A DNA stretch of 64,000 nt, taken from Staphylococcus phage Twort. The translations under genes were made by a program, and so were the position numbers. Positions 16,272 to 59,735 of the stretch are shown one piece after another; position 1 is the stretch's first letter, and the number at the start of each line of letters is the position of its first letter. The notes under the pieces are model-generated. The model did not search any database, was not told the DNA's origin, and worked only from the letters and a program-made list of their open reading frames with translations. Location: sequence record NC_007021.1. The stretch is one strand, 5' to 3'.

Positions 16272-17563
16272 ATGGCATCTCAAGCTAAACAGACAGTCCA
16301 TACTGGTAATACCGTAATGCTTATGATTAAAGGTAAACCTGTAGGTAGAGCTCAATCAGCGTCTGGTACACGTTCTTACGGTACAGAAGGGGTATATGAG
16401 ATTGGTTCTATCATGCCACAAGAACACGTTTACCTTAAGTATGAAGGTGAATTAACAGTAGAACGTCTACGAATGAAAAAAGAGAACTTTGCAAAATTAG
16501 GATATGCTTCTCTTGGTGAAGAAATCCTTAAGAAAGATATTATTGACATTGTTGTTATTGACAACTTGACTAAAGAAGTGCTTGTGTCATATCACGGTTG
16601 TAGTGCTAATAACTATGAACTTCGTAGCTTCACATAGTAATATGTGTCGAAAAACTTTTCTAAACAGGGAAGCCTAAGTCTATTAGATATGGTAATCCTG
16701 TGCTAAATCAGATTAATAATCTGTAAATGCCAAACGACTAACTGAAACCTACTTGATAATTCAAGGGGAGTAAGTGTAGAGCCAAGCGGTAGAAGTTTTA
16801 AGTAATTATTATGTAAATCTTCTTTAAATCGAAAAGAAAAGAGTCCTTTTTTAGGATTGTGATATAGTCTGAACATATATGGAAACATATAGCAGTTCCT
16901 AGAGAACGGGCAGTGAGTAGCGACCACTGTTGAACATAATGGATGAAGCATGGAACACTAATGAAATAACTACTGAAAGCATAAATAATTGTGCCTTTAT
17001 ACAGTAATGTATATCGAAAAATCCTCTAATTCAGGGAACACCTAAACAAACTAAGATGTAGGCAATCCTGAGCTAAGCTCTTAGTAATAAGAGAAAGTGC
17101 AACGACTATTCCGATAGGAAGTAGGGTCAAGTGACTCGAAATGGGGATTACCCTTCTAGGGTAGTGATATAGTCTGAACATATATGGAAACATATAGAAG
17201 GATAGGAGTAACGAACCTATTCGTAACATAATTGAACTTTTAGTTATTTATCAGCATAAAATTATCTTGTGCCTTTACACAGTAATGTGTATTGAAAACT
17301 CCTTTAATTCATGGGAAATCTTAATTAAGACAATCATGAGCCAAGCCTAGCAATAGGAAGGTGCAACGACTAGAGAAAGGGTAGCTTACTATTATAGGTA
17401 GTAAGTGAGAACCGAGTATCGTACGCTCAAGTGAGTGGAAATGGGGAGTGTCCTAGAGTAACGACTAGGATAATGATATAGTCTGAACATATATGGAAAC
17501 ATATAGAAGGATAGGAGTAACGAACCTATTCGTAACATAATTGCAGATAAAGCTTCACGATAG
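16272..17563 (+). CDS. tail tube protein gene split by three group I introns; ~139 aa when spliced
   Basis: Inferred exons: 16272-16607, 16942-16982 (41 nt), 17235-17257 (23 nt), 17544-17563. Exon 1 ORF (112 aa) follows the sheath gene. Splice sites are inferred from alignment of the intron copies, the U-before-5'SS and G-before-3'SS rules, and frame continuity (84 nt = 28 codons to TAG at 17561-17563). Confidence 0.55.
16608..16941 (+). mobile_element. Group I intron 1 of the tail-tube gene (ORF-less)
   Basis: P/Q/R/S-like core elements; 3' end ..GUUGAACAUAAUG. Confidence 0.55.
16983..17234 (+). mobile_element. Group I intron 2 of the tail-tube gene (ORF-less)
   Basis: Starts aaataattgtgcc..; R ..gcaacgacta..; 3' 75 nt identical to intron 3, ending ..cgtaacataattg. 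Confidence 0.55.
17258..17543 (+). mobile_element. Group I intron 3 of the tail-tube gene (ORF-less)
   Basis: Starts aaaattatcttgtgcc..; same conserved 3' core; ends ..cgtaacataattg. Confidence 0.55.
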
Positions 17564-17572
17564 TATCTTATT

Positions 17573-17601
17573 AGACCTAGAATATTCTAGGTCTTTTTTT
17601 A
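17573..17601 (+). terminator. Rho-independent terminator after the tail-tube gene
   Basis: agacctagaatattctaggtct followed by TTTTTTT. Confidence 0.7.
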
Positions 17602-17653
17602 TTGACTTTATGTAAAATATAGTGTAACATAAAGTATACAGGAGGCTAATATA

Positions 17654-18967
17654 ATGGATAAGAAAATATTAAAAGAAGCTAGTAGATTAGGGATAAAAAT
17701 TATTAAAGAGGATAAAATAACAAGAAATAAAACACATGTAGGAGTAATTCTTAGAGGTAAGTTTAAAGGGTGTGAATGCCATGTATCTTACGAATATTTA
17801 AAAAACAAGAATAATAACACAGAATTTGTAATTACCATTTTAACTGATAGAGGTAAGAAACAGTATTTTAATAAAGTAGCAGAAGAAAGGGGATATAAAA
17901 TACTAGAATACCCCAAAGAGTTACTAACGGTAAATAGATGTAAACTTTTATCACCCAAAGGTAATACATGGGATGTACAATGGAACTCCTTTGAAAACAA
18001 TAGGAACAGTAACTGCCCTAAAGATAAATTAAAAAGCATAGGAGAGAGAATAGTAGCAACTATATTAAGAGAAAATAATATAGATTTCACCTCTGAAAAA
18101 GGTATATATACGGGTCTTAAAGTTAGACAGAGGTTAGATTTCTATTTCATAATAGGAGGACAAAAATACGCAATAGAATACATGGGTAGACAACACACAG
18201 AAGAAGTAAAAGGAGGATGGGGAGTATCACTAGACAGAATTATATTTTTAGATAAATTAAAAGAAGAGTATTGTCGAAGTAATGGAATTAAATTACTACA
18301 GGTGTGGTACCCTATGGAAGATAAGGAAAGTATATTCACAGAAATAAAAGAATTTTTAGACATACCTTTAAAATATACCCCCGAAGTAGATTATATATCT
18401 AGGCTAAATGACAACGAAGAAGAAATTTTAGAATACTACAAAAACCATTCTGCAGAGGAAACATCAAACAAATACGGGATTACTATTAACCAAGTTAAAG
18501 GAATATTAAATAGGACTAAATTTACGAAAAGATTTAAAAGTGTGGAAGGTATTAATATTAAGTCAGGTGAAAAGTTACAGTTTAATACTTTAAAAGAAGC
18601 ACAAGAATACTTTAAAGATAGTAAAGGTGTGGACACTATAAGGGCATGCGTAATAGGAAAAAGAAAAACAGCATGTGGGTATATATGGAGATACAAAGAC
18701 GAAGATTTTTCAGAATTATCTACAAAAATAACAGATAAGAGAATAAAAGTATTTAAGGCAATAAAAGGGAGTGAAGTAATAACACTTCCATTACAAATGT
18801 TATCTATAAAGACAGGGCTTGCTATACAAACAATTACTAAATTAGCAAGAAATAAAGGAAAAACAAGCAAAGGATATGAAATTATAGAAGTAACAGGAGA
18901 AGAGAAAGGAGAGATTTTGGATAGTATAAGTTTTGTAGACTATGTGCAAAGTTTAAATAAAAAGTAA
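17654..18967 (+). CDS. Free-standing homing-endonuclease-like protein: Vsr/DUF559-type PD-(D/E)XK nuclease domain plus C-terminal helix-turn-helix DNA-binding module
   Basis: Central segment ..RLDFYFIIGGQKYAIEYMGRQH..CRSNGIKLLQVWY.. is paralogous to the C-terminus of the 200-1165 intron ORF. C-terminal ..GKRKTACGYIWRY.. is an IENR/NUMOD-like DNA-binding motif found in phage homing endonucleases. Confidence 0.6.
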   Translation: MDKKILKEASRLGIKIIKEDKITRNKTHVGVILRGKFKGCECHVSYEYLKNKNNNTEFVITILTDRGKKQYFNKVAEERGYKILEYPKELLTVNRCKLLSPKGNTWDVQWNSFENNRNSNCPKDKLKSIGERIVATILRENNIDFTSEKGIYTGLKVRQRLDFYFIIGGQKYAIEYMGRQHTEEVKGGWGVSLDRIIFLDKLKEEYCRSNGIKLLQVWYPMEDKESIFTEIKEFLDIPLKYTPEVDYISRLNDNEEEILEYYKNHSAEETSNKYGITINQVKGILNRTKFTKRFKSVEGINIKSGEKLQFNTLKEAQEYFKDSKGVDTIRACVIGKRKTACGYIWRYKDEDFSELSTKITDKRIKVFKAIKGSEVITLPLQMLSIKTGLAIQTITKLARNKGKTSKGYEIIEVTGEEKGEILDSISFVDYVQSLNKK

Positions 18968-18972
18968 CCTCA

Positions 18973-19008
18973 ATAACCCTTGACAATACTCAAGGGTTAT
19001 TTTATATT
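18973..19008 (+). promoter_or_regulatory. Terminator-like hairpin with an embedded sigma-A-type promoter (TTGACA 18980-18985, 17-nt spacer, TATATT 19003-19008)
   Basis: aataaccctt..aagggttatt stem with the -35 hexamer in the loop; T-rich tail. Confidence 0.4.
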
Positions 19009-19025
19009 ATTAGTGAGGTGAAAAG

Positions 19026-19184
19026 ATGAACAATAGACAATCTAAATTAAAAGGTCAAAACCAATTCCATTACCATGACAAACCAACAGATAAAGGTTGT
19101 TATAAACGATTAAAGAAAAGGAAAACAAGAAATGAGCTTAAAAAATATTTACAAAAAGAAAGGAAGAAATACATTGACAAATAG
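19026..19184 (+). CDS. small highly basic protein (52 aa)
   Basis: RBS GGTGA; composition ~40% K/R; below the ORF-track size cutoff. Confidence 0.35.
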   Translation: MNNRQSKLKGQNQFHYHDKPTDKGCYKRLKKRKTRNELKKYLQKERKKYIDK

Positions 19185-19311
19185 AAAAACAATAGGTAAA
19201 CTAAGTAAAACTAGAGCTACTTGGAACATTAACCCAGTAACAAGAGTAAAGAAAGATAAAACTAAATACACAAGAAAAAAGAAACATAAAAATGTTGACA
19301 GTGATTATTAG
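19132..19311 (+). CDS. small highly basic protein (59 aa) overlapping the previous ORF in another frame
   Basis: ATG 19132 with AAAGGA upstream; K/R/T-rich. Confidence 0.3.
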   Translation: MSLKNIYKKKGRNTLTNRKTIGKLSKTRATWNINPVTRVKKDKTKYTRKKKHKNVDSDY

Positions 19312-19323
19312 CCATTGTATAAT
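19295..19323 (+). promoter_or_regulatory. Consensus sigma-A promoter TTGACA-17-TATAAT
   Basis: ttgaca 19295-19300, tataat 19318-19323, TG immediately upstream of the -10. Confidence 0.55.
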
Positions 19324-19346
19324 AAGGATAAAGGAGCTGATATACT

Positions 19347-19802
19347 ATGTTTTATTCAGAAAGAAGAACAACTTGTAAGGAAAGGCAACGTAAAAAACAT
19401 TATTCACAAATGACGTTACAAGAAAAGAAAGATTGTGTTTCACTTTTACAAAATGTTTTTGAACAATGTAAATTCTTTAAGATGACACCACATTTTAAAG
19501 AAAAATCACTTACTAGGATAGATTTTGACTTACTTAAAAACTTCATACTTCATAACAACTATGCATTCTTAAATATTATAGAATACAATGAAACAAAAAC
19601 ACGGTATAATACACAAAAACGTATTGTACTTAAATATCCTGAGATTGTGAAAGTAAAAGGTATTCCTTGTTTTCAATATTTAGTTATCACAAATAATGGT
19701 AAGTTAGTTACTACATATTATAATAAGATTAACGATGTACATAAAACATTAGACTTAACTTATTATGATAAAAATTTAAAAATAAGTGTTGACATTTACT
19801 AA
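19347..19802 (+). CDS. hypothetical protein
   Basis: 151-aa ORF with RBS AAAGGAG. Confidence 0.5.
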   Translation: MFYSERRTTCKERQRKKHYSQMTLQEKKDCVSLLQNVFEQCKFFKMTPHFKEKSLTRIDFDLLKNFILHNNYAFLNIIEYNETKTRYNTQKRIVLKYPEIVKVKGIPCFQYLVITNNGKLVTTYYNKINDVHKTLDLTYYDKNLKISVDIY

Positions 19803-19839
19803 CAAATAATTTACAATAAACGTATAAATATAAAGGAGA

Positions 19840-20154
19840 TTGATTTTAATGAACAAAAAACAAGAAGTATTAGAAAGTATGAAAAAAGAATTAGGATGCT
19901 TACCCCCAAGTGTAAGTATGACAAGTAAGTATGATGCATTACATATTCACGGAGCGTTAGAGAAGTTTAAAGAGTTATCAGATACAGGAAGTAAGTTAAC
20001 AAAAAAATACTTAAATGGGTCAGAGATACTAACTATTAATTACCAAGACTTTGATTCTATGCAAGACTACTACTTATATTTATTAAGAAACTATTCAAAA
20101 ATTAAACAATGTTTAGGTGAAATTACTGAACATTTTGAACAACGAATTGCATAG
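19840..20154 (+). CDS. hypothetical protein
   Basis: 104-aa ORF with RBS AAAGGAG. Confidence 0.5.
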   Translation: MILMNKKQEVLESMKKELGCLPPSVSMTSKYDALHIHGALEKFKELSDTGSKLTKKYLNGSEILTINYQDFDSMQDYYLYLLRNYSKIKQCLGEITEHFEQRIA

Positions 20155-20236
20155 AAAGTTATTATATAGTATAATAAAAAATATACTTTGATGTTATATT
20201 AATTATGAATAGGAAAAAGGAAAGGAAGTTACGGAA

Positions 20237-20689
20237 TTGACAGAAGAAAATAAAAACGTAGAAGAAGTAAAAAAGGAAACACCTAAGGAAGAATCTAAAA
20301 AGTTAACAAAAGAAGAAATTGATAAACTTAAATATAAACAACAAGAAGAACGTGAGGAAGTTATTAATAAAGTTATTCGTGGTGTAAACGATATTTATGA
20401 AAAAGAATTTAAGTTTGATAACTTAGATGAGCCTGTAACATTTAAAATTAGATACCCTAATGCTTTAGAACAAGGTCAAATTTTAAGTGTACGTTCTTCT
20501 TACTTTAATGGTACAGATATGTACCAATCACAAGAAATTATTTATGCGTTTCATATGTTAGCTACATTAAATGTAGTAGGTATTGATGTACCTAAGGAAT
20601 TTAGAAATGCAGAGGAGATTTACCGACTAGAGCCATTACTAGAGCTTTACTACGATTGGGTGGCTTGGTTAAATACCTTTCGTTACTAG
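20237..20689 (+). CDS. putative tail assembly chaperone (G-like)
   Basis: TTG start with RBS AAAGGAAAGGAAG; located two genes upstream of the tape-measure gene. Confidence 0.45.
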   Translation: MTEENKNVEEVKKETPKEESKKLTKEEIDKLKYKQQEEREEVINKVIRGVNDIYEKEFKFDNLDEPVTFKIRYPNALEQGQILSVRSSYFNGTDMYQSQEIIYAFHMLATLNVVGIDVPKEFRNAEEIYRLEPLLELYYDWVAWLNTFRY

Positions 20690-20762
20690 AGGTGACGTTG
20701 ATGAGGTAGGGGGAATAGAGCGCCTCGTAAAAGAAAATTACTCTAGGAACTTATGGACTATT

Positions 20763-21221
20763 ATGCGTGAGTTTAATGTACTCCCTACAGACGAAAGGTT
20801 TAGAAATCTAACTGACCTTCAAATAGAATTTATATTATATAATATGGTACAAGATAATAAAGAACAAGAACTTATTGCTAAAGGTAAGAGATTTGATAGT
20901 CATTTTGAAGATGATGACAGGTCTTGGATGGAAGCTGATGAGGAAGACTTTGAAGTTGTACCAGATTATATTGACTTAGAAGATATTAATAAACAAATTG
21001 AAAATAAATTATCTGAAGAAGAAAAACAACGCAGACAAGAACGTTTTGATTCAGATGACCCTGATGAAATGGATAGGGTAGATTTAGTTTTAGAAGAGCA
21101 ACGAAGACGTATAGAAGAACTAGACAGGGAATTAGGAATAACTAGTGATAAACCTGTTGAATATAGTAAGGATACAATTGGTCAAGCCTTAGATGAGCTA
21201 GATGAAGATGATTGGATTTAG
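20763..21221 (+). CDS. acidic protein; possible T-part of a frameshifted chaperone (frame open from 20673)
   Basis: Frame 3 is open 90 nt upstream of its ATG and overlaps the last 5 codons of the 20237 ORF in the +1 frame. Confidence 0.45.
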   Translation: MREFNVLPTDERFRNLTDLQIEFILYNMVQDNKEQELIAKGKRFDSHFEDDDRSWMEADEEDFEVVPDYIDLEDINKQIENKLSEEEKQRRQERFDSDDPDEMDRVDLVLEEQRRRIEELDRELGITSDKPVEYSKDTIGQALDELDEDDWI

Positions 21222-21251
21222 GGGTAGTAGTATTTCTACTACCCTATTTTT
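21222..21251 (+). terminator. Rho-independent terminator
   Basis: gggtagtagtatttctactaccc followed by TATTTTT. Confidence 0.6.
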
Positions 21252-21271
21252 AAGTAGTAGGTGGTAGACAA

Positions 21272-24200
21272 ATGCTCAATGATAACTATAGGTTAGTATT
21301 GTCCGCTGATAGTTCTGATTTAGAAAATGGGCTTAAGGCAATACAGGCATATATGGATGCACTAGAGAAGAGTAACATAGATGCACCCTTAGATAAATTT
21401 AATGAAAAGTTAAGACAAATTGCTAAAGAGATAAAAAATGTTCAAAAGATTCAAAAAAGTGTAGAAGGAACTTCTTTTGTTAAAGCTAAAGATATGAATG
21501 AGTTAGTAAACTCATCTAAAAAAGCACACAAAGAAATTAGTGATTTACAAGACGCTTTACAAGATGTTGCTGAAACTGATAAAATAAAAGGGTTCATTGA
21601 CCCCAAGGTTCTTAAGACATTCAGTAGTTTAAATAATGCCCTTAAAGAAACAGGTAACATTGTTGATGAAGTATCAGGAAAGTCTATAGGTGTAGATGCT
21701 GATATTAAACAACGTATGCGTGACATGAAAGAGTTTGGCACACAAACTAAGAAAGCAATGGAACTACAAAAGCAGTTTGATGATATTAGTGCGCATAAAA
21801 AGAACTTATCAGCTACACAAAGACGTGTGAGCGGTACTTTAGATAGAACAAGAAGTACTAATAGAATGACATACATACAAAGTGAGAAAATGAAATCGGA
21901 CTTGTCTGTGCTTGGTAGTAGTAAGCAACGTAAAACACAAGCTGAAAACACAATGAACTCACTTAGAGATGAACAACGTAAAGCTAGACAACAGTATCAA
22001 GACATACAAGGTAGAGCTTCTAGGAATGAAATATCTGAATCAGAACGCAGGAAGTTATCCGCTGAAATACAAAATGAGATTCAGATAAGAAGTAAAGTTA
22101 TTCAAAAATATGAAGAATTATCTAAAGAGTTAGACAAAAGTATAGGTTCATACAATAAAAATAGTTCAGAGTATAGTGGACGTACAGTAGAGGCACGTAG
22201 AGGTAGTTTTGGTAGTCTCGTAGCTGACCGTGCCCCTTCTATAGTTTCACATGCTGTTATGGGGGCATTAGCACCCCTTACAGCTATGTTCTTTAACGGT
22301 CGTTCTATATCACAACAAAATAGACCTAGAAAAATAGCCCTAGGACAACAATTAGGTACTAATATTGATAATGTCGGTAACTACATGAACGAAGGGATGA
22401 AAGAAAAAGGTTTAGGCTACGATAGAGGAGCCACACTAGAAATGGCGCAAGGGGTAGCTAGTGCTACTGGTGTAACAGACCAAAGTAAAGTCAAAGGTAT
22501 GGTAGATGTTTTAGCATCTAGCTCAAGAAGTATGGGACTTAATGATGAAGAAGGATTTAGAAGTACTGTATCCGACATTCAACACACAGGTGTATATAAA
22601 GACGCATCAAGTCTAGGTCAATTTACTGATGCTGTTTACGGAGGAATTAAACAAGCAGGACTAGAAGGTCGAGCAGACGAGCAGATTAAGGCTCTTGGAC
22701 AAATAAGTGAAAGTGTCGGTAGAGGTAAAACTTTAACTGATACAGATATGAACAATATCACCGCTTTTCAATCAACATTAGCAAGCTCTGGAAGTAAAGC
22801 GTTACAAGGGCAACAAGGTGCTGACGTAATGGTTGGTTTAAATGAAGGTATTAAAGGGGCAAATAATGACCCATATCTTCGTAACATGATGGGACTTACT
22901 GATAAGTATGGTGGCGGTGTTGTTGGAATGTATAAATCACAACAACAGCTAGGTAAAGGCCTATCAGACCCAGAAAACTTAACTAGTGGATTAGATAGAA
23001 TTAAAAATAGTGGAGCTTCTAGAGAAGAACAAGAAGCTCACGCATGGGCGTATATGAGAGAACTAAACCCAGAAATATCTACAGAAGCTACTAAAAAAAT
23101 ATATGATTTATATGATAAAGGCAAACTTACTAAAGAAGAATTAAATAAAGCATTATCAGAAGACCAGAAAAAAGGTAAAGAGTCTAAAGACAATAATGCA
23201 AAAGATTACAAAGAATCTCAAGCAGGAAAAGATAACAGAAATGAAGCAAACGCTAACAACACTTCTGAAGATGCTTATGATATGACTGCGGAAATAAGAA
23301 ACTTATCTGGAACGATTACAGGACTAGGTGTAGGTGTTACTGCACTTGCAGGTGCTGTAACTGGTTTAGCAGTAGCAGTTGCTAAATCCGCAGGTATGAT
23401 GGGAGCAGGTCAGTTATTTAAGTGGGGTACAAGTAAATTCCAAAAACCTGGAACTAAAGGAGCACCCACTCCACCAGGAAACCTAACAGGCGGTGGAAAT
23501 AAAGGTGGAGGTTTCTTTGGTAAAGCTAAAGATTTAGGTAAAAGAGCTGTAGGTTGGGATTCCGAAAGAGGTTGGCAAGGAGCTAAAGGTTCTTTTAACG
23601 ACCCATTTAAAGACCAAGTAGGACGAGCTAAAGGTAGTGTCACTGATACAACTAAAAAAGCTAAAAATACAGACTGGAAAGGTAAAGGAAAAGACCTTTG
23701 GGGAACTACTAAAAACTTTGGTCAACGACTTTTTGAATCTGGAAAAGACGTAGGTAAAGGTAGTGTATTTAGTGGTTTAGGTAAAAAAGCTAAAGGACTC
23801 TTTACAAATAAAGGAAATAATGGTATAGTTGCAGGGGGAGCTTCTGCAATGGGTGACGTAGGTAGATTATCTAGAATGGGCGGTCTACTAGGAAAAATAG
23901 CCATGCCATTAGGAGTAGCGGGCTCTTTATTTAATGTAGGCAGTCAGATGAAACAAGGTTCTAGTCTTAATGATGCATTAGTAGGTGAGGCTAGTAACTG
24001 GATTGACCCTCTAGGACTAGGTTATGGTAAGTCTATTACAGGACAGTTTACTGATAAAGCAATGAACGGTAAATCACTTATAGGATGGAATACACCTAAT
24101 GGTTCAGAAGATTTTGGTTTATTAGGAAAAGCATGGAACTCATTATTTGGTGGTAAAGATAGTGAAAATAAAGCAGGTGGCGGTGGAGGCTCTTCAGATA

Positions 24201-25081: not shown

Positions 25082-25112
25082 GGGTAGGGTAATAATACCC
25101 TTCCCTTATTTT
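25081..25112 (+). terminator. Imperfect hairpin with T tail after the tape-measure gene
   Basis: agggtagggtaataatacccttccct followed by TATTTTT. Confidence 0.35.
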
Positions 25113-25128
25113 TAAAGGAAGTGAAATT

Positions 25129-27543: not shown

Positions 27544-27546
27544 AGG

Positions 27547-30224: not shown

Positions 30225-30245
30225 GCTAAATGCTTACCTTTTTTG
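30220..30245 (+). terminator. Rho-independent terminator
   Basis: ggtaagc..gcttacc followed by TTTTTT. Confidence 0.5.
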
Positions 30246-30313
30246 ATGTTATATTAAAATTGAATTGATATATTAAATACAATATGCTATAATAGGCTTT
30301 GAGGTGATGAATA

Positions 30314-32317: not shown

Positions 32318-32330
32318 AAAGGAAAATTAT

Positions 32331-33377: not shown

Positions 33378-33387
33378 GAGGGGTCTT

Positions 33388-40618: not shown

Positions 40619-40635
40619 TAAAGGAATGATTAATT

Positions 40636-41852: not shown

Positions 41853-41867
41853 AAAGGAAGATAAATA

Positions 41868-42233: not shown

Positions 42234-42241
42234 GGCAATAC

Positions 42242-43570: not shown

Positions 43571-43627
43571 AACTAGGATTAATTTCCTAGTTTTTTTATT
43601 GACTTAATACTAAAAGTATGATAAAAT
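43571..43627 (+). promoter_or_regulatory. Terminator (ctagga..tcctag followed by TTTTTTT) directly followed by promoter TTGACT-17-TGaTAAAAT
   Basis: hairpin 43573-43590; T-run 43591-43597; ttgact 43599-43604; taaaat 43622-43627. Confidence 0.55.
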
Positions 43628-43658
43628 AACCCTTGTGTATAGGGGGAAGGGAGCTTTT

Positions 43659-46673: not shown

Positions 46674-46678
46674 ATTAG

Positions 46679-49595: not shown

Positions 49596-49600
49596 TTAAA

Positions 49601-49633
49601 AGCCTTGACAAACTAAATGTCAGGGCTTATAAT
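49601..49633 (+). promoter_or_regulatory. Promoter TTGACA-17-TATAAT whose -35 and spacer form a 10-bp hairpin
   Basis: agccttgaca..tgtcagggct stem 49601-49627; tataat 49628-49633. Confidence 0.45.
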
Positions 49634-49655
49634 TTTAGTATAAAGGAGGGTATTT

Positions 49656-50675: not shown

Positions 50676-50731
50676 GCTATTGACAAAGCATACCTAAAAT
50701 GGTATGCTTTTAGTATAGGAGGAAGATAGTA

Positions 50732-51094
50732 ATGGTATCGTATAATAACGAAGATTTTAATACTGTAGAGCTTACAGACATTCTTGATAAAGACCAACTA
50801 ATAGAGTTTTTAGTAAAAAATCAGAAAGTTAATAATTTAGATATTAGTAAAGTAAAACAAGATAAATTCGATATGAATATGGCGGTATTGCAATTTCAAG
50901 ATGATGAGAATAATTTAACAAATATTTGTAATGTAGAAAATTTAGATGAAGGTTTAGATAAAATACGTCAAATATTTAAAGATTCCGAATTAGAACATAG
51001 ACTACATTACTTTAGAGTTGTTGAGCATGAAGATTATTATTGGATTGATTACGGTTCACATCACACATTCTTTAGAGTAACAAAGAGGGGGTAG
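50732..51094 (+). CDS. hypothetical protein
   Basis: 120-aa ORF between the sbcD-like and sbcC-like genes. Confidence 0.45.
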   Translation: MVSYNNEDFNTVELTDILDKDQLIEFLVKNQKVNNLDISKVKQDKFDMNMAVLQFQDDENNLTNICNVENLDEGLDKIRQIFKDSELEHRLHYFRVVEHEDYYWIDYGSHHTFFRVTKRG

Positions 51095-51097
51095 GTT

Positions 51098-53008
51098 ATG
51101 GTTAAATTTAAAAAAGTAGAGATTAAAAACTTTATGTCTATAAAAGATGCAACACTAGAGTTAGACAACCAAGGGCTTATACTTATAGAAGGTATAAATA
51201 AGACAAACGATTCTTTTGAAGCCAATGGCGTAGGGAAATCGACACTAGTATCGGCTATCACATATTCCCTATATGGAAAAACGGAAAAAGGTCTAAAAGC
51301 CGATGATGTCATCAATAAAAAAGAAAAGAAAAACACATCTGTTAAACTTTACTTTGATATAGGTGAAGATAATTATATTATTGAGCGTTATAGAAAAGAC
51401 GAAGAAAACAAAAATAAAGTAAAACTATTCTGTAATGGTAAAGAAATTACAGGCTCTACGAATGATGTTACAGATAAACAAATACTAGATTTATTCGGTA
51501 TAGACTTTAACACATACCTCAACGCTATTGTATATGGTCAAGGTGATATGCCTATGTTCAGCCAAGCAACTGACAAAGGTAAAAAAGAAATTTTAGAGTC
51601 TATTACTAAGGTAGAAGTATACAAAAAAGCACAAGAAGTAGCTAAAGAAAAAGTAAAAGAAGTAGAAGATAAGCAAAATAAATTACAAAATAGTATTCAA
51701 CAACTAGAATATCAAATAGATTCTGTTCAATATAAAATTGAGTATGAACAAAATAATTATAAAGAGCAACTACAACGACTAGAAGCTATTAAAGAAGAGA
51801 ATACTAAAAAAGAACAACAAAAAGTAGAAGAAGAAAAGAAATTAAAAGAACAACTATATAATTTACCAGACTACAGACAAGTTCAAGACACTTTTCAATA
51901 TTCGGAACAATATAATAAAATACAACTTGCTTTACAAAAACTAGAAGAAAAGAAAAAAGAACTTTTAGATAGTTACAATAATACAAAAGTAGAATTATCT
52001 GTAGAAACTACAAAACTTAATACAGAACAAAACAAGCTAAATAGTCTAGATACTTCTGATAAATGCCCCGTATGCGGTTCGCAAATTGATAATAATCATA
52101 AATTAAAAGAACAAGAGAACATTAAGAATACAATATTATCTATTAATGAAAGAACAGACTACTTAAAAACACAAGAAGATTTATATAAACAGGCTATTCA
52201 ACAATTAGATGCTAAAGCTACTCAATTACTAGAAGTAGCAAAAAGGGAAGAAGAGCAAGAAAAGCAACACGATAAGTTAGTATATTCAACTAAAGAGTAT
52301 AATAATAGTATTGATTATAACAAAAAGTCCTTAGAACAACAATTAAGTAATTTAGATTCTAAATACCAACAGCAAGACTTATCAAAGCTAACGCCTACAG
52401 AACCAAACATAAAACAATACGAAGATGAATTAAAAGAAGTAAATATTACTATTGACAAAACAAAGGATAGTATAATACAATTAGAGAATAAGAAACAACG
52501 TTATAAAGATGCTGTAGAAGCTTTTTCTAACAAAGGTTTACGTTCTGTAGTATTAGATTTTATCACACCTTTCTTAAATGAAAAAGCAAATGAATATTTG
52601 CAGATTCTTTCTGGTTCGGATATTGAAATAGAATTTCAAACACAGGTTAAAAACAACAAAGGTGAATTAAAAGATAAGTTTGATGTTGTTGTAAACAATA
52701 AAAGTGGTGGTTCTACTTATAAATCTAATTCCGCAGGAGAACAAAAGCGCATAGACCTAGCTATTAGTTTTGCTATTCAAGACCTTGTAATGAGCCAGAA
52801 TGACTTACAGACTAACATTGCACTTTACGATGAATGTTTCGATGGGTTAGACACAATTGGTTGTGAGAACGTAGTAAGATTACTTAAAGATAGATTAAAA
52901 ACAGTATCTACTATTTTTGTAATTACACATAACCAATCACTTAAACCACTATTTGAAAAAACGATTACTATGATTAAAGAAAATGGAGAGGCAAGAATGG
53001 AGATATAG
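51098..53008 (+). CDS. SbcC/Rad50-like ATPase
   Basis: Walker A GVGKST, long coiled coil, zinc hook CPVCGS, signature SAGEQKRIDLA, D-loop LYDECFDGLD. Confidence 0.8.
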   Translation: MVKFKKVEIKNFMSIKDATLELDNQGLILIEGINKTNDSFEANGVGKSTLVSAITYSLYGKTEKGLKADDVINKKEKKNTSVKLYFDIGEDNYIIERYRKDEENKNKVKLFCNGKEITGSTNDVTDKQILDLFGIDFNTYLNAIVYGQGDMPMFSQATDKGKKEILESITKVEVYKKAQEVAKEKVKEVEDKQNKLQNSIQQLEYQIDSVQYKIEYEQNNYKEQLQRLEAIKEENTKKEQQKVEEEKKLKEQLYNLPDYRQVQDTFQYSEQYNKIQLALQKLEEKKKELLDSYNNTKVELSVETTKLNTEQNKLNSLDTSDKCPVCGSQIDNNHKLKEQENIKNTILSINERTDYLKTQEDLYKQAIQQLDAKATQLLEVAKREEEQEKQHDKLVYSTKEYNNSIDYNKKSLEQQLSNLDSKYQQQDLSKLTPTEPNIKQYEDELKEVNITIDKTKDSIIQLENKKQRYKDAVEAFSNKGLRSVVLDFITPFLNEKANEYLQILSGSDIEIEFQTQVKNNKGELKDKFDVVVNNKSGGSTYKSNSAGEQKRIDLAISFAIQDLVMSQNDLQTNIALYDECFDGLDTIGCENVVRLLKDRLKTVSTIFVITHNQSLKPLFEKTITMIKENGEARMEI

Positions 53009-53010
53009 TT

Positions 53011-53598
53011 ATGAAGTTAAAAATTAAAAATAAATTTATGGGAGTGTTAGAGGTTACTAATTCTATGGGTGTAACTAAGTTAGACGTACCCTTAAGTAAC
53101 ATACATGAATGGTATCCTTTTTCTAACGCTTATTCTTACAAGTATAATGTAAAAACAAAAGATTTAGTATTAAAACGACTACGTTCATCACTACCAGTAT
53201 CTTATGGGATTGAACGAGCGTCTAAAGAGTATGACAAAGATAAAGTATGTAACACAGTAACATGGATAAACCATTCAGTAAAAGACAGTAATTTACACAT
53301 TATTAATAAAGCTAAATCATATGGGTTACCTGTTATTACAGAAAAGTATACATATGAAGATGTGGATTATGGGTTTGCACAGTTAAATGTTATCTTTTCT
53401 GAATTAAAATCTTTGATTATTAATCGTTATTTAGAGGATAAAGATGGTAGTTTTATTGTTAAGTTTAAAAGACACAACCCAGAAACCCAATATCATTTAG
53501 CGGTACAAGATGCTGATGAGGTTATTAATAATACCTATGATGAGCTAGGTCAAATGTATAAAATGTTATTACTAATGAAGAAATTAAGTAAGTATTAA
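53011..53598 (+). CDS. hypothetical protein
   Basis: 195-aa ORF. Confidence 0.45.
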   Translation: MKLKIKNKFMGVLEVTNSMGVTKLDVPLSNIHEWYPFSNAYSYKYNVKTKDLVLKRLRSSLPVSYGIERASKEYDKDKVCNTVTWINHSVKDSNLHIINKAKSYGLPVITEKYTYEDVDYGFAQLNVIFSELKSLIINRYLEDKDGSFIVKFKRHNPETQYHLAVQDADEVINNTYDELGQMYKMLLLMKKLSKY

Positions 53599-53610
53599 AG
53601 GATTGATTCT

Positions 53611-54672
53611 ATGAGATTCCAAGACTTTTTAACGCAAGAACTAGGAACACCTAAAATAAATAATGGGGAGTATCAGTACTGCTGTCCTTTCTGTGGTGAA
53701 CAAAAGTATAAGTTCTATGTAAAAGACTCTTTACAATCCGATAACGGATTGTATCACTGTAAGAAGTGTGATGCTACAGGAAACCCGATTACATTTATGA
53801 AAGGCTATTATTCTGTATCTGCAAAACAAGCTATAGACTTATTAGAAACTAAAAATATAACTTTTGAGATAAGCCCATTAGATAACTACAGTAATGAACT
53901 TTCAGAATCAGATAAACTTATACTACACCTAAGAAAAAAGAATCATAAACAGGAAACAAGACCAACAAAACCCCCTAGATTACCTATAGGATTTAAATAC
54001 TTAAAGGATAACTTACAAAATAAGGAATCATATCCATTCCTATACTACTTAAAAAACAGGGGAATTACACTTGACCAAATTATAGAACATAACATAGCTT
54101 ATGTAACAGATGGTTACTTTTATAAAACAAATGGGGAAAAAGCATCGTTAAGAAATAGTGTTATCTTTTTCACGTATGATAATAATGGTAAATATAAGTA
54201 TTGGAATACTCGTAGTATAGAACCTAATCCTTACTTAAAATCTATTAATGCACCTTCTAAAGAACAAGAATATGCAAGGAAAAATTGTATCTTTAATTTT
54301 AATGTTGCTAGAAATGAAAGGGTAATGATTATAACTGAAGGTGTTTTCGATGCTCTTACGTTTGGTAAATCAGGTGTTGCTACTTTTGGTAAACAAGTAA
54401 CACAATCACAATTAGACCAAATTATACAACATACAAATAAAGATACTATTATATATATTATGTTAGATAGTGATGCATTAACTAACAATATTAAGTTAGC
54501 TAGAAGATTACATGAGCATTTTACTACGTTTGTTGTTCCACATGGTGTAGAAGATGCAAATGATATGGGTAAAGAAAAAGCTGTTAAAGTACTTAAAGAA
54601 AATAGAATTTTAGCAACACCAGAAAACTTACAAAATTACTTATTACAACAAAAATTAACATTTAATGCTTGA
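53611..54672 (+). CDS. DNA primase (zinc finger + TOPRIM)
   Basis: CPFCGEQ..x17..CKKCD zinc finger; TOPRIM ..ITEGVFDAL.. and ..MLDSDA.. Confidence 0.7.
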   Translation: MRFQDFLTQELGTPKINNGEYQYCCPFCGEQKYKFYVKDSLQSDNGLYHCKKCDATGNPITFMKGYYSVSAKQAIDLLETKNITFEISPLDNYSNELSESDKLILHLRKKNHKQETRPTKPPRLPIGFKYLKDNLQNKESYPFLYYLKNRGITLDQIIEHNIAYVTDGYFYKTNGEKASLRNSVIFFTYDNNGKYKYWNTRSIEPNPYLKSINAPSKEQEYARKNCIFNFNVARNERVMIITEGVFDALTFGKSGVATFGKQVTQSQLDQIIQHTNKDTIIYIMLDSDALTNNIKLARRLHEHFTTFVVPHGVEDANDMGKEKAVKVLKENRILATPENLQNYLLQQKLTFNA

Positions 54673-54726
54673 TTTAACATAAAATTTATGGTACAATAAT
54701 GAAAGACAAGTGAAGGAGGTCTATCT

Positions 54727-55035
54727 TTGGAAAAGAAAAGTATTTATACATTTGTAGATGAATACTTAATTTTAGAATCTACAAAAAATAAAGAAAAGCT
54801 AGAACAGTTAGAAGAAGAAGGTAACAGATTAACTGCTACATACACAGATGTAGCAAAGGCAATTACTAACTTAACTTACGGTATTAATGAGCAATTAACT
54901 GATGTACATAGTATGGTAGCATCCTTATTATCCATTTTAGTAGAGGCTATGTACGAGGAAAAGGTTATTGACCAAAAAGTATTAGACAAAATTGAAGAAT
55001 ATCAAAATAAATTATATGAAAAGGAAGATGAATAA
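54727..55035 (+). CDS. hypothetical protein
   Basis: TTG start with RBS AAGGAGG. Confidence 0.45.
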   Translation: MEKKSIYTFVDEYLILESTKNKEKLEQLEEEGNRLTATYTDVAKAITNLTYGINEQLTDVHSMVASLLSILVEAMYEEKVIDQKVLDKIEEYQNKLYEKEDE

Positions 55036-55466
55036 TGGAAAAAACTGTATCAACTCATGCTAAGGATATTTCGACTAATGATTTAAATAAATGGTTAGAG
55101 GCTGTTACTACTAACCGTCTTAATGGTAAAGAGATTGGAGAAAAAGAAACTAAAGAGTTACAACGTTTAGGTAATCGTGCTGTATCTTTAGAAGTAGCTA
55201 CACGTATTGCTATGTCTTTAGCAGAACACGAAGTACAAAATGTAGCATCACGTTTATTACAATCCGTAGACCTTATTCAACAAATTATGGAAGATGAATT
55301 AGGTATTGATGAAGAAAAACTTAATAAAGCGGTAGCTAAATTAAATGATAAGTATGAGGCTTACATTAAAGAGCAACAAGAAAAAATTAAAGAAGCACAA
55401 AAAAAGGAAGTAGAAACAGACAGTAATGAGAAAGTCGTTTCTATGAAACCTAAAAATGAGCAGTAA
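55035..55466 (+). CDS. hypothetical protein
   Basis: 143-aa ORF. Confidence 0.45.
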   Translation: MEKTVSTHAKDISTNDLNKWLEAVTTNRLNGKEIGEKETKELQRLGNRAVSLEVATRIAMSLAEHEVQNVASRLLQSVDLIQQIMEDELGIDEEKLNKAVAKLNDKYEAYIKEQQEKIKEAQKKEVETDSNEKVVSMKPKNEQ

Positions 55467-56055
55467 AAGTAAAGGTGATACATTCGAAAGAAAAATAGCT
55501 AAAGCACTAGGTGAGTGGTGGGGTTATAAATTTAACCGTACACCACAATCTGGTGGAGCTAGTTGGGGAGCTCAAAATAATGCAGTAGGGGATATTGTAA
55601 CACCTCCTGACGCTGAGTTTCCTTTAGTTATAGAATGTAAGCATAGAGAAAATTGGAACATGGATAATGTATTACTTAATAACAAAGAGCCTCACACATG
55701 GTGGCAACAAGTTATTAGAGATTCAGAGCATGTAGGTAAAGTGCCCTGTCTTATTTTTACTAGAAATAGAGCAAGGGATTATGTTGCATTACCTTATATA
55801 GAATCTGTATATAATGACCTTAGAGATAAAGATTATCCCGTTATGAGAACAAGTTTTATTACTACTAATCTTAAAGAAGAAAAGTTTTATTATGATGTCG
55901 TTATAACTACTATTGAAGGGTTGACCCATTTCAAACCTTGCTATATTAAATCTTGCTACAACGAATTTAAGGTAGAACCTTACAAAACAACGTCTAAAAA
56001 AACTATAACTAAAGATGAAAACAGTTTAATAGATGATATTTTAGATAATATATAA
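55456..56055 (+). CDS. Holliday-junction-resolvase-like PD-(D/E)XK nuclease
   Basis: Motifs ..GDTFERKIAKAL.., ..GDIV.., ..LVIECKHRE.. resemble Hjc/RecU-type resolvases. Confidence 0.45.
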   Translation: MSSKSKGDTFERKIAKALGEWWGYKFNRTPQSGGASWGAQNNAVGDIVTPPDAEFPLVIECKHRENWNMDNVLLNNKEPHTWWQQVIRDSEHVGKVPCLIFTRNRARDYVALPYIESVYNDLRDKDYPVMRTSFITTNLKEEKFYYDVVITTIEGLTHFKPCYIKSCYNEFKVEPYKTTSKKTITKDENSLIDDILDNI

Positions 56056-56070
56056 CAAGGACTGATATGA

Positions 56071-56463
56071 ATGACAAAAGAGGAAAGACCCATAATTGTA
56101 TACTACAGTGGTACAGGACAAACTAAAAGATTAGTAGATAAAATTAATAATGATTCATTTGAGGTAATGAGAATGAAAACAGGCAATGAGATAGTAGAGC
56201 AACCTTACATTCTTATTACCCCTACTTATATGAAAGGTGAAATTCCTAAACAAGTACAAAAATTTATTAGTAATAATCATGCACCTAAAGAAGTTATTGG
56301 CACAGGAAATAAACAGTGGGGAGAACACTTTTGCGGTGCAAGTAAAAAAATAGCTGAAATGTTTAGTATACCTCTTGTTGCTAAGATTGAACAAGCAGGT
56401 CATTTTAATGAAGTAAATACTATTAAAGAGTATTTTACAACAGAATACAAAGTTAGTTATTAG
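56071..56463 (+). CDS. nrdI: NrdI flavodoxin-like protein
   Basis: ..IVYYSGTGQTKRLV.. flavodoxin motif; immediately upstream of nrdE. Confidence 0.8.
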   Translation: MTKEERPIIVYYSGTGQTKRLVDKINNDSFEVMRMKTGNEIVEQPYILITPTYMKGEIPKQVQKFISNNHAPKEVIGTGNKQWGEHFCGASKKIAEMFSIPLVAKIEQAGHFNEVNTIKEYFTTEYKVSY

Positions 56464-56473
56464 AGGTGAAAAG

Positions 56474-57193
56474 ATGGCAACTTATGGTAAGTGGATTGAC
56501 CTTAATAATGAGGTCACTCAACTAGACGAAAATGGAAAAAATAAACTCTATAAGGACAAAGAAGCCTTAGAAGAGTACTCAAAATATATTGAAAAGAATA
56601 CACGTAATTTTGATAATGAAGTAGAGCGTGTACGTACCTTAACTAAAGAGGGTACTTATGATAAGGTGTTTGATAGTATTCCTGATACTATTATTGAAGA
56701 AATGACAAAGTTAGCTTATAGTTTTAACTTTCAATTTCAGAGCTTTATGGCATGTCAAAAGTTCTATGAATCATATGCTGTGACACAGTATGATAAAGAT
56801 GATAATCCTATTTTTGTAGAAGATTATGAACAACATAATGTACGTGTTGCGCTTTATTTATTTCAAGACGATTATGTTAAAGCTAGAGAAATGTTAATTC
56901 AATTAATGGAACAGACATTACAGCCCGCTACACCAGTATATCTTAACTCAGGGTTAGGTAAACGTGGTGAATTGTCATCTTGTTATTTATTTATTGTAGA
57001 TGATACTATCGAATCTATTAACTTTATTACAGACTCCGTACGACAAGCATCTAAAAATGCAGGAGGTTGTGCAGTAGACTTAACAAGATTACGCCCTAGA
57101 GGAACAGAGGTTAATGGTGTTCCTAATGCTAGTAAGGGTGTAATACCATTTGCAAAAAATATCGAGCAGAGCGTATCATATTTCAACCAGGGT
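56474..57193 (+). CDS. nrdE: Ribonucleotide reductase class Ib alpha subunit, exon 1
   Basis: Ends ..SYFNQG at a U; splicing to 57623 gives ..FNQGGKREGSAVCYL.. Confidence 0.75.
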
Positions 57194-57622
57194 AAACAAT
57201 TCTGCCCCCTATATTAGTAATAGTGTAGGTTAAAAAACTTCCTTAATTCATGGGAAATCTCCTTGACTTTTATTATAAATTTTGGTATAGTAAAATGAGA
57301 AGGAGATAATCATGAGCAAGATAACCAATAGCAAAGAAACCCAAAAAAGTACCTAACGCTACTAAAAGTATTTACCACCATATAAAAAGTAAAAGAAGAT
57401 GGAAGTCATTAAATCACTTAATGAATTGGTAATTATCTTGTGCAACGACTAGAGAAAAGATAGTTTATTGTTACAGGCAGTAAATGAAGACTGAGTATCG
57501 TACACTCAAGTGAGTGGAAACAGGAAGTATCCTAGAGTAACGACTAGGATAATGATATAGTCTGAACATTGTAGGTGACTACAAGAAGGTAAGGAGTAAC
57601 GAACCTTATCGTAACATAATTG
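57194..57622 (+). mobile_element. Group I intron 1 of nrdE (ORF-less)
   Basis: P ..aattcatgggaaatc..; R ..gcaacgactag..; S tgatatagtc; ends ..cgtaacataattg; 5' region matches tail-tube intron 3. Confidence 0.65.
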
Positions 57623-58648
57623 GGAAAACGTGAAGGCTCTGCAGTATGTTATTTAAATATATTCCACCCAGATATTCATGAATTTTTAAGTTCTAAAAAA
57701 ATTAATGCTAGTGATAAAGTAAGATTAGACACATTATCTATTGGTGTAACAATACCAAATAAGTTTATGGAATTACTTAAAGAAGATAAATACTACTATA
57801 CATTTAATGTATATGATGTTAAACAAAAATATGGGTTTACATTAAATGAAATAAACATGTCCGAGTATTATGATATATTTGTGAATGATGATGATATTAG
57901 AAAAGAAAAATATTATACAAGAGATATAATGACTGACATTGCAAGAACACAACTAGAGTCAGGATACCCTTATGTTTTCTACATTGATAACGCAAATGAC
58001 AATCACCCTTTGAAGAAACTAGGTAAAGTTCAAATGTCTAATTTATGCTGTGAGGTGACACAGCTACAAGAAGTATCCGACATATTCCCATATTTACAAT
58101 CACATAATGATACTATTGGGAATGATGTTGTGTGTACGTTAGGTTCATTAAATTTAGTGAATGTTGTAGAAAAAGGATTGCTTAAAGAATCCGTAGATAG
58201 TGGTATTCGTTCGTTATCTAAAGTAACGGATTTAATGAACGTTCCATTTTTACCAAGTGTTCAGAAGGCAAACGATGAGCTACGAGCTATAGGTCTTGGA
58301 GCAATGAACTGGCATGGACTTCTAGCAAAGAATATGCTTAGTTATGGTTCTAGGGAATCTCTAGACATTGCTAATAGTTTATTTAGTGCTATTAGATACT
58401 ACTCTATTAAGTCTAGTATGGAACTAGCTAAAGAAACTGGTAAAGTTTTTAAAGGTTTTAAAGAATCAGAATACTATACTGGAGAAGTGTTTAGTTCATA
58501 TATTCAAAAGTCACATGAACCTAGAACTAAAAAAGCTAAAAAAGTACTAGAAAAGGTATATATCCCTACGGAAGAAGACTGGAACTCTTTAAGCAAAGAT
58601 GTAAAAGAGTATGGTATGTACAACGGATACTTAAATAATCTTGCACCT
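57623..58648 (+). CDS. nrdE: Ribonucleotide reductase alpha subunit, exon 2
   Basis: GKREGSAVCYLNIFHPDIHEFL (active-site loop) ... ends ..NNLAP. Confidence 0.75.
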
Positions 58649-59735
58649 TATATATTAGGGCGTGTATAAGAATACATGATAACTCTTTCGAATTGCTGGA
58701 ACACCCTTAGAGCCTAATAAACTACAACGTAACTAGAAATGGTAAGCGTGAATGTTTAAAAATTATTGGGATTGGGCAATCAGCATCTAAGATTCTAAAT
58801 AATTATAATTAAAATAAAGTGTAACAAAGGAAGATATATTATAGAGGAGTTATGGAAAGAAATACCTGGGTTTAATTCATACATGATTAGTAATAAAGGT
58901 CAGGTTTACTCAAGAAAAAGAAATAAGATACTAGCTTTACGAACAGATAAAAATGGGTATAAAAGAATATCTATTTTTAACAATGAAGGTAAAAGAATTC
59001 TATTAGGAGTTCATAAGTTAGTTCTCTTAGGTTTTAAAGGTATTAATACTGAAAAGCCTATACCTCACCATAAGAATAATATTAAAGATGATAACAGATT
59101 AGAAAATTTGGAATGGGTTACAGTTAGTGAAAATACCAAGCATGCATATGATATAGGGGCTTTAAAATCACCTAGGAGAGTTACATGTACTCTTTATTAT
59201 AAAGGAGAACCTTTATCATGCTATGACTCGTTGTTTGACTTAGCTAAGGCTTTAAAAGTAAGTAGAAGTGTAATAGAGAGTCCTAGAAATGGTTTGGTGT
59301 TATCTACTTTTGAAGTAAAAAGAGAACCTACAATACAAGGACTACCTTTAAATAAAGAGATATTTGAGCATAGTTTAATTAAGGGCTTGGGTAATCCTCC
59401 TTTAAAAGTGTATAATGAAGATGAAACCTACTACTTTTTAACTTTAATGGACATAAGTAAGTACTTTAATGAATCATACTCTAAAGTACAACGAGGATAT
59501 TATAAAGGTAAGTGGAAAAGTTATATTATAGAACATATTGATTTTTATGAGTATTACAAACAAACACATTAATTATAATTACAAGAATAAAGTTCAACGA
59601 CTATCCCGTTGCTGGGAGTACACTCAAGTGAGTGGAAGTGGAAGAGGTCTTACTTAAGTAAGATGTGATATAGTCTGGACGTATATGGAAACATATAGAA
59701 GGTAAGGAGTAACGAACCTTATCGTAACATAATCG
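58649..59735 (+). mobile_element. Group I intron 2 of nrdE, carrying an HNH endonuclease ORF
   Basis: R ..caacgactatc.. at 59594; S gtgatatagtc at 59660; ends ..cgtaacataatcg; exon junction restores LAP|TQSISY. Confidence 0.65.
58838..59572 (+). CDS. Intron-encoded HNH homing endonuclease (I-HmuI-like); start uncertain (ATT/ATA ~58838-58841, or ATG 58883)
   Basis: N-terminus ..LWKEIPGFNSYMISNKGQVYS.. matches the conserved EWKDIKGYEGHYQVSNTGEVYS start of I-HmuI-type enzymes. HNH motif ..PHHKNNIKDDNRLENLEWVTVSENTKH.. . RBS AAAGGAAG at 58827-58834. Confidence 0.65.
   Translation: MIEELWKEIPGFNSYMISNKGQVYSRKRNKILALRTDKNGYKRISIFNNEGKRILLGVHKLVLLGFKGINTEKPIPHHKNNIKDDNRLENLEWVTVSENTKHAYDIGALKSPRRVTCTLYYKGEPLSCYDSLFDLAKALKVSRSVIESPRNGLVLSTFEVKREPTIQGLPLNKEIFEHSLIKGLGNPPLKVYNEDETYYFLTLMDISKYFNESYSKVQRGYYKGKWKSYIIEHIDFYEYYKQTH

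Follow-up and report, generated by a model that had tools for sequence, protein, structure and literature searches.

Group I introns interrupt several genes of Staphylococcus phage Twort, and long parts of some of them are the same letter for letter; the question that this raises is whether whole introns have recently been copied from gene to gene within one phage genome, or whether introns with separate pasts have come to share some of their parts. The DNA analyzed here is a stretch of 64,000 nucleotides (nt) of sequence record NC_007021.1 (the window), which holds three introns (I1, I2 and I3) in the tail-tube gene orf142, two introns (nrdE-I1 and nrdE-I2) in nrdE, and one intron in terL, all on the plus strand. 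A first-pass annotation, made from the letters alone, had placed all six introns in one family that spread recently within the genome, by reverse splicing or ectopic homing, as opposed to ancient independent acquisitions. Segment-by-segment comparison clearly indicates that sequence has been exchanged between introns within the Twort genome, because I2 and I3 share 70 identical nt, nrdE-I1 and nrdE-I2 share 37 nt, and the centre of nrdE-I1 is nearer to I3 (86%) than to its own orthologue (72%). The reading that we consider probable is that of an old, phage-wide pool of introns in site-specific lineages, to which gene conversion between co-resident introns has been added.

The elements in question are the classic Twort group I introns, and both the introns and their mutual resemblance were already published between 1999 and 2002. 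The original papers on the orf142 and nrdE introns are reportedly those of Landthaler & Shub in 1999 (PNAS 96:7005) and Landthaler et al. in 2002 (NAR 30:1935), and the abstract of the latter is said to give the shuffling of intron structural elements as the alternative to common origins. Common origins were inferred from the similarities of the Twort introns by Landthaler et al. 2002, as that paper is quoted in PMC4853749, where the choice between a common origin and a shuffling of structural elements is already in print, and the introns are self-splicing according to the titles and secondary descriptions of the 1999 and 2002 papers (PMC10136302, PMC4853749). I2 and I3 have been described as highly similar IA2 introns with a 23-nt exon between them and with exon skipping (PMC10136302), and orf142-I2 is the RNA of PDB entry 2RKJ (PMC4853749). 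Furthermore, the crystal structure of a Twort ribozyme-product complex is cited in PMC3984707, P7.1/P7.2 are described in the Twort ribozyme structure, and the 1087-nt length of nrdE-I2 is listed together with its endonuclease, I-TwoI (PMC1995217).

The window agrees with two GenBank records. Positions 16200-17700 are identical (100%) to AF132670.1 ('Staphylococcus phage Twort unknown genes'), where orf142 is annotated as a coding sequence (CDS) in four pieces that 'contains group 1 introns', and positions 56340-60165 match AF485080.1, which carries Twort nrdE as a three-piece CDS together with the HNH endonuclease I-TwoI, at 99.6% identity. The exon/intron map was derived from the reading frames, and it describes the same object as the published one: the four-piece and three-piece CDSs, the 23-nt exon, the 1087-nt nrdE-I2 and I-TwoI all agree. 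In orf142, exon 1 (16272-16616) is followed by I1 (16617-16941, 325 nt), exon 2 (16942-16982, 41 nt), I2 (16983-17234, 252 nt, the source of the crystallised Twort ribozyme), exon 3 (17235-17257, 23 nt, the exon reported to be skipped), I3 (17258-17543, 286 nt) and exon 4 (17544-17563), which ends with the stop codon; none of the three introns contains an open reading frame (ORF). In nrdE, exon 1 (56474-57193; Pfam RNR_N, Ribonuc_red_lgN and the start of PF02867), nrdE-I1 (57194-57622, 429 nt), exon 2 (57623-58648), nrdE-I2 (58649-59735, 1087 nt) and exon 3 (59736-60104) follow one another. Removal of I1-I3 yields a tail-tube protein of 142 amino acids (aa) that is collinear with intron-less homologues, for example that of phage K, and removal of both nrdE introns yields a 704-aa NrdE; the nrdE junctions are proven, because the three exons tile positions 1-73, 74-388 and 389-523 of PF02867 with no gap or overlap. 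An assembly or duplication artefact was also considered as a source of the repeated sequence and was rejected, since the two independent records agree with the window and every junction restores a complete conserved protein; its probability is negligible.

A group I intron is a ribozyme with an internal guide that base-pairs with the last nucleotides of the upstream exon, of which the final one is always a U. Splicing begins when a guanosine held in P7 attacks the 5' splice site; in the second step the terminal G of the intron occupies that pocket, and the exons are ligated. All five complete introns follow a U (...tat|G..., ...cat|A..., ...cat|A..., ...ggt|A... and ...cct|T..., for I1, I2, I3, nrdE-I1 and nrdE-I2 respectively), and the last base of each is G. 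The likeness of I1-I3 to the Rfam model RF00028 extends to scores above the gathering score of 50 (63.6, 97.4 and 100.9 bits for I1, I2 and I3) and to the R and S elements. At the P7-P3' position, where the P7.1/P7.2 helices of subgroup IA2 would lie, the Rfam alignment of I1-I3 has unaligned insertions of ~31 to 68 nt. The Twort ribozyme crystal structure is reportedly the work of Golden et al. 2005. The nrdE and terL introns differ in that they were undetected by Rfam (whole window, E up to 1), where only the three orf142 introns were matched; they were missed because of long insertions or truncation, and CAACGACTA and GATATAGTC are present in the correct order in all of them.

The 69-nt string from which near-identical 3' ends had been claimed occurs exactly twice, at 17166-17234 and 17475-17543, with zero occurrences expected by chance. 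I2 and I3 agree without a mismatch over 70 nt (17165-17234 and 17474-17543), and over 79 nt if two mismatches are allowed; the ~75 nt stated in the first-pass annotation was therefore a fair figure. In both introns this 3' module is made up of the P7 3' strand (the 'S' element), a predicted P9 hairpin with a GAAA loop, a predicted P9.1 hairpin with a 9-nt loop, and a terminal GTAACATAATTG that reaches the splice-site G. Both nrdE introns had been described as only a few substitutions away from this string; that description holds for nrdE-I2, which differs at 7 of the 69 positions, but not for nrdE-I1, which differs at 14 of 69 and has as its P9 a different helix with a GUGA loop. The 3' tails of nrdE-I1 and nrdE-I2 are themselves identical over exactly 37 nt. 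For I1, only the S element had been thought to be shared, with P9 and the 3' end diverged; however, the S element and P9 hairpin of I1 (16859/16860-16892) are identical to those of I2 and I3 over 33-34 nt, and it is only past P9 that I1 has diverged. In all, I1 matches I2 and I3 over no more than 44-47 nt. A covariance model of the 3' module, run over the whole window without filters, matched exactly six places, with scores of 97.3 (I2), 97.3 (I3), 94.0 (nrdE-I2), 82.4 (nrdE-I1), 42.4 (I1) and 17.7 bits (terL, E 0.1). At the 5' side, the match that had been noticed between I3 and nrdE-I1 was recovered as 27 nt at 92.6% identity (17295-17321 and 57234-57260).

Two types of 3' tail could be distinguished: type A, found in I2, I3, both nrdE introns and an intron in nrdF of phage vB_SpsM-DH2 (DH2), and type B, found in I1 and an intron in nrdE of DH2. 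The P9 variants are partly genome-specific, with I1, I2 and I3 alike in Twort, introns 1 and 2 alike in phage 110, and introns 3 and 4 alike in MRSA16. In several of these introns the loops of both P8 and P9.1/P9.2 (17452-17461, 17208-17217, 57531-57540, 57596-57605 and 16925-16933) contain the motif AGUAACGA(A/C), which in I1 reads AGUAGCGAC; it is found also in relatives from other phages and may be a tertiary-contact motif. The minus-strand ORFs at 16703-16951 and 17026-17229 had been explained as the repeat read backwards, and this is borne out: they and a third ORF, at 17392-17538, all contain YMFPYMFRLYH. Such antisense ORFs within the introns are repeat artefacts, and similar ORFs, as well as a truncated tail-tube exon 1, are annotated as 'hypothetical protein' elsewhere (for example V1SA20, L007 1785-1994).

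The simplest account of such likeness would be that it is only what any group I core requires, by constraint or convergence. It is true that both the R element and the S element GATATAGTC are widely conserved, and that many phages, T4-like ones among them, have core-level matches to I2. The five orf142 and nrdE introns are nevertheless alike beyond the universal core, in the P9-P9.1 tail, in P8 and in P7.1/P7.2, as the first-pass annotation had judged by eye. Covariation was assessed on eight distinct versions of the module (four from Twort, one from DH2 nrdF, three from Silviavirus and one from Sepunavirus, as the set was recorded). Of the alignment cells that make up the P9 and P9.1 helices, 91% are paired, a lower bound because column-based pair counting mis-registers the P9 of nrdE-I1 and the 8-bp P9.1 stems; both sides change in 6 of 13 pairs, 0 of 500 shuffles reach these values, and slid registers of the P9/P9.1 pairing fall to 27-58% paired. 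These data indicate that the 3' module forms a genuine RNA structure under selection, with freedom to vary in sequence, and because P9 and P9.1 do vary with compensatory changes in related introns, constraint does not explain the exact identity of the Twort copies. The core-only account was rejected on these grounds, namely identity that runs through P9, P9.1, P8 and P7.1/7.2, compensated helices in relatives, and a 69-nt string with no expected chance occurrence, and we regard it as highly improbable.

To place each Twort intron among its relatives in other phages, segment-wise local alignments were used, because MAFFT on full-length introns misaligned the 5' halves; gap-tolerant global identities for the 1087-nt nrdE-I2 were discarded as inflated. 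I1 has same-site orthologues in the Sepunavirus phage 110 (83% over 318 nt) and in the Silviaviruses V1SA20 and MRSA16 (79-80%). Full-length relatives of I2, at 86-88%, are found in many Twortvirinae, and the core of I2 is 92% identical to an MRSA16 intron that is located at the I3 site. The I3 site is occupied in the Silviaviruses V1SA20 and MRSA16, where the introns match Twort I3 almost completely over their first ~40 nt, and the best other-phage matches that cover the I3 centre are at ~79-83%. For four of the five introns (I1, I2, I3 and nrdE-I1) a relative from another phage, at the same site for I1, I3 and nrdE-I1 and full-length for I2, is equal or closer overall than any Twort paralogue. 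The Twort copies are thus not one another's closest relatives over their whole length; only segments of them are. The comparison of I2 with I3 has the same character, with 84% identity in aligned core columns that contain many gaps, or 61% when gaps are counted, and with 141 of 232 columns matching in the core versus 70 of 70 in the tail (Fisher p = 3e-13). Two further features link these two introns: both have the guide GUGC, and the sites of both end in GCAU.

The segmental pattern is most evident in nrdE-I1. Its same-site orthologues, in pSco-10, PG-2021_35, 184DA and the EW series, are ~980 nt long and carry an intact HNH gene (in pSco-10 at L009 525-1193), of which Twort nrdE-I1 keeps the first 14 codons (57312-57356) and the last ~10 codons (~57400-57432); therefore nrdE-I1 is a nuclease-deleted derivative. 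Its 5' part (P1-P5) is closest to pSco-10 (81%), with I3 next (74%), and its HNH remnants and P9 are likewise closest to pSco-10. Its centre (P7, P7.1/7.2, P3' and P8) is closest to Twort I3 (86%), with pSco-10 next (72%); over 130 nt the two Twort centres are 87.7% identical and are the closest known relatives of each other. Its P9.1 and tail are closest to Twort nrdE-I2 (97%), followed by I2/I3 (89%) and pSco-10 (79%). Judged by its sequence affinities, nrdE-I1 is a three-way mosaic. A comparable exchange of modules is seen across phages, in that Silviavirus intron 2 has an I2-like core together with a type B, that is I1-type, tail.

These results bear directly on the proposal of a recent copying of complete introns between Twort genes, whether by reverse splicing and reverse transcription or by ectopic homing. 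In its favour are the mutual closeness of the I3 and nrdE-I1 centres, the shared guide and site ends of I2 and I3, and the I2-type core at the I3 site of MRSA16, which implies at least one 23-nt shift of this intron type within the gene. However, the similarity is by segment and does not cover entire introns, I1, I2, I3 and nrdE-I1 have relatives elsewhere that are equal or closer overall, and nrdE-I1 retains HNH remnants typical of the lineage at its own site. No reverse transcriptase was noticed either; to our knowledge, a reverse transcriptase is not needed for the mobility of phage group I introns. Whole-intron copying within Twort is for these reasons unlikely, and nothing in the data points to reverse splicing specifically. 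Of the recent spread within the genome that had been claimed, what stands is the exchange of segments and not the copying of complete introns, and the single family of six is reduced to the five orf142 and nrdE introns, which are related beyond the core.

The probable reading, that of an old pool overlaid with gene conversion, agrees with the shuffling alternative that Landthaler et al. 2002 reportedly gave, and can be set out as follows. A pool of old mobile introns would circulate among Twortvirinae and related phages, and most intron copies would have their own lineage at their own site, because they have orthologues there in other phages. Homologous recombination between co-resident introns would then have produced the stretches that are unusually alike in Twort, that is the 70 nt of I2 and I3, the 33 nt of I1, I2 and I3, the 37 nt of nrdE-I1 and nrdE-I2, and the centre that nrdE-I1 has in common with I3. 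Introns would arrive and leave through recombination with other phages, probably driven by nucleases, for which I-TwoI is proposed in the case of nrdE-I2 and a free-standing nuclease gene beside orf142 in the case of the ORF-less introns. That the identical stretches stem from gene conversion, and that nucleases drive the horizontal arrival of introns, is what we infer from these patterns; likewise, I2 and I3 have identical tails and similar guides, which would be a plausible basis for the reported exon skipping.

Several points weigh against this reading. The direction and timing of conversion are unreadable from one genome. DH2 is the one close relative of Twort that was compared, and the finding that I3 and the nrdE-I1 centre have their closest relative in the same genome could be a sampling effect. 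The status of the nrdE introns as ribozymes is supported by their splice junctions, their shared modules and the published record, and it is weakened by their non-detection by Rfam. Finally, an I2-like intron is found at two different sites in two phages, with GCAU before each; relocation of whole introns, as read from these placements, does occur in this family and may have occurred in Twort too. In a side observation on the same gene, the tail-tube genes of five phages together have at least six insertion sites within 81 nt (-17, 0, +29, +41, +46 and +64 relative to the I1 site), and that of Silviavirus MRSA16 has four introns.

The presence or absence of the introns in relatives was a check that had been proposed for the claim of recent spread. 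The closest genome in the collection, DH2, has none of the five Twort orf142 and nrdE introns, its empty sites are readable, and it also has no free-standing nuclease gene beside orf142. This absence speaks for horizontal turnover of the introns. DH2 has introns of its own: one in the tail-tube gene (L003 2901-3201), 17 nt upstream of the I1 site, whose 5' half aligns over 73 nt with the 5' half of Twort nrdE-I2 at 86% identity, one of the I1 type at the SNLC codons of nrdE (L004 1820-2177), and the type A-tailed one in nrdF (L004 3491-3875). These three introns were undetected by Rfam at E up to 0.01; their removal restores the genes, and the DH2 record is unannotated.

After splicing, the tail-tube genes of Twort and DH2 agree at 96.0% of positions in nt 1-327, but at only 72% in nt 328-345 and 80% in nt 346-429. 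The differences in nt 328-429 are almost all synonymous, and synonymous divergence rises from 4% to 20-28% in the intron-bearing part of the exons. Downstream of the gene, the homology of the two genomes continues at 95% through a terminator-like hairpin (17573-17594) that is kept in DH2, is broken by a Twort-specific insertion of 1.4 kb (17607-19008), and resumes at 93%; the protein encoded past the insertion is 97% identical. A diverged exon tract next to such an insertion has the appearance expected of co-conversion with DNA imported from a diverged phage.

Within this insertion, which is clean relative to DH2, lies a free-standing nuclease gene, here called orfc (17654-18967, plus strand, 437 aa), whose product matches phrog_7140 'intron encoded nuclease' at 4e-168. 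The gene starts 90 nt past the orf142 stop codon, beyond the terminator-like hairpin, and has its own promoter-like site and ribosome-binding site. A homologue of orfc immediately follows an intron-bearing tail-tube gene in each of phage 110, MRSA16, the PG-2021 series, UHP46, vB_SscM-1, 812, Fi200W, phiIPLA-C1C, Koomba-kaat_1 and Golestan101-M. Phage K and DH2 have neither introns at the I1-I3 sites nor the adjacent nuclease, and in EW9-type Kayviruses the nuclease adjoins an intron-less tail-tube gene; the association was read from sampled lists of genomes. In phage 812, two non-coding tail-tube introns and an adjacent nuclease gene have been described; phage K and the mutants derived from 812a have neither (PMC6445280). 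By its family and position, orfc is a candidate helper for intron mobility.

An explanation that would complement the pool of old introns is that the ORF-less orf142 introns are mobilised with the adjacent free-standing nuclease, by collaborative or trans homing, a concept described in PMC2790892. The nuclease would cut intron-less tail-tube alleles of a co-infecting phage, and repair would copy the introns, the flanking exon and the nuclease gene. Consistent with this are the family of the nuclease, its free-standing position with its own expression signals, its homologues beside intron-bearing tail-tube genes in many phages, the joint absence of introns and nuclease from DH2 and from phage K, the same joint absence reported for 812 relatives, and the step in synonymous divergence, which falls exactly in the intron-bearing part of the exons. 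However, the role of the nuclease is a prediction from family and position, EW9-type Kayviruses carry the nuclease beside a tail-tube gene that has no intron, DH2 has an ORF-less tail-tube intron with no nuclease adjacent to it, and the association as a whole derives from sampled lists. Collaborative homing of the orf142 introns is therefore quite possible, although short of probable.

A bolder and tentative version, which we consider possible but somewhat doubtful, is that the last 100 nt of the Twortvirinae tail-tube gene are an intron landing pad that is serviced by the adjacent VSR-like nuclease. Collaborative homing would move the ORF-less introns in a single cassette with the nuclease gene; introns thus placed side by side would have their P9-P9.1 tails homogenised by gene conversion, giving rise to genome-specific variants and so enabling exon skipping. 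If this were true, the mechanism and the concerted evolution would be new; joint presence and absence had already been noted for 812 (PMC6445280).

The Twort arrangement can be compared with known systems. Domain shuffling between the T4 td, nrdB and sunY introns was reportedly seen in experiments by Bryk & Belfort in 1990 (Nature 346:394). The likeness is that co-resident introns in different genes share core segments and recombine into mosaics; the difference is that recombination was observed in T4, whereas in Twort it is deduced from segment identities. In collaborative homing, as known from cyanophage psbA (Zeng et al. 2009) and from mobE and the nrdB intron of T4 (PMC2790892), ORF-less introns likewise lie beside a free-standing nuclease, introns and nuclease are jointly present or absent in close relatives, and a diverged exon tract surrounds the introns. 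Dissimilar from these systems, the Twort nuclease is VSR-like, by the annotations of other records, has no Pfam match, and is accompanied by several introns at several sites. Kayvirus 812 (PMC6445280) has the same gene and arrangement, with a 'putative intron nuclease' of the same family at 34% identity (matches in 812, Fi200W, A3R and P4W); it differs in having two tail-tube introns, compared to three in Twort, with sequences that are only ~77% alike.

Two further nuclease genes of the window lie inside introns. The I-TwoI HNH homing endonuclease gene (58841-59572) within nrdE-I2 is annotated in AF485080, and its product matches Pfam NUMOD4 (4.2e-13) and HNH_3 (7.9e-9). In AF485080 the gene is annotated to begin at an ATA codon (window 58841). 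No ATG occurs in this frame before 58883, and the ATG at 58852 belongs to another frame, which is closed by a stop after seven codons. The other gene (212-1165, plus strand) lies in the terL intron, and its product matches phrog_559 'HNH endonuclease' (1.2e-78) and phrog_9084 'homing endonuclease' (1.8e-45). This product and that of orfc are 36% identical over 121 aa and belong to the same nuclease family. No Pfam match was obtained for the terL-intron ORF, orfc or the terL exon, and the assignments came from PHROGs. The Kayvirus counterpart of the terL-intron ORF, I-MsaI, is called a 'protein of unknown function' in PMC5618024.

The terL intron itself stands apart. It occupies positions 1-~1250, outside the stretch to which the proposed family had been assigned, and its 5' end is cut by the start of the window; an R-like ACGACTA is found at ~105 and the S element GATATAGTC at 1170. 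Because exon 1 lies outside the window, the 3' splice site is placed only approximately, at ~1240-1258, and positions 1248-2144 on its 3' side match positions 284-570 of the terminase large subunit family phrog_675. As had been stated, the terL intron has the S element in common with the other introns; this 9-nt element (1170-1178) is all that it shares, and no blastn similarity to the other Twort introns was found at E 1e-3. This comparison does not demonstrate that the terL intron belongs to the family of the orf142 and nrdE introns.

With three introns in one phage gene, exon skipping, the nicking endonuclease I-TwoI and a crystallised ribozyme, the Twort introns are a textbook case already. 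What the present comparison adds is positional orthologues from later genomes, the mosaic map of nrdE-I1 and the empty sites of DH2. For the annotation of Herelleviridae, these observations are of practical use: in its records a truncated ORF often stands for the split tail-tube gene, and antisense ORFs have been annotated within introns. Altogether, the picture is sharpened in two respects: co-resident phage introns are alike by segment, which would reflect recombination over old site-specific lineages and not recent copying of whole introns, and the ORF-less tail-tube introns may travel together with the neighbouring nuclease gene.

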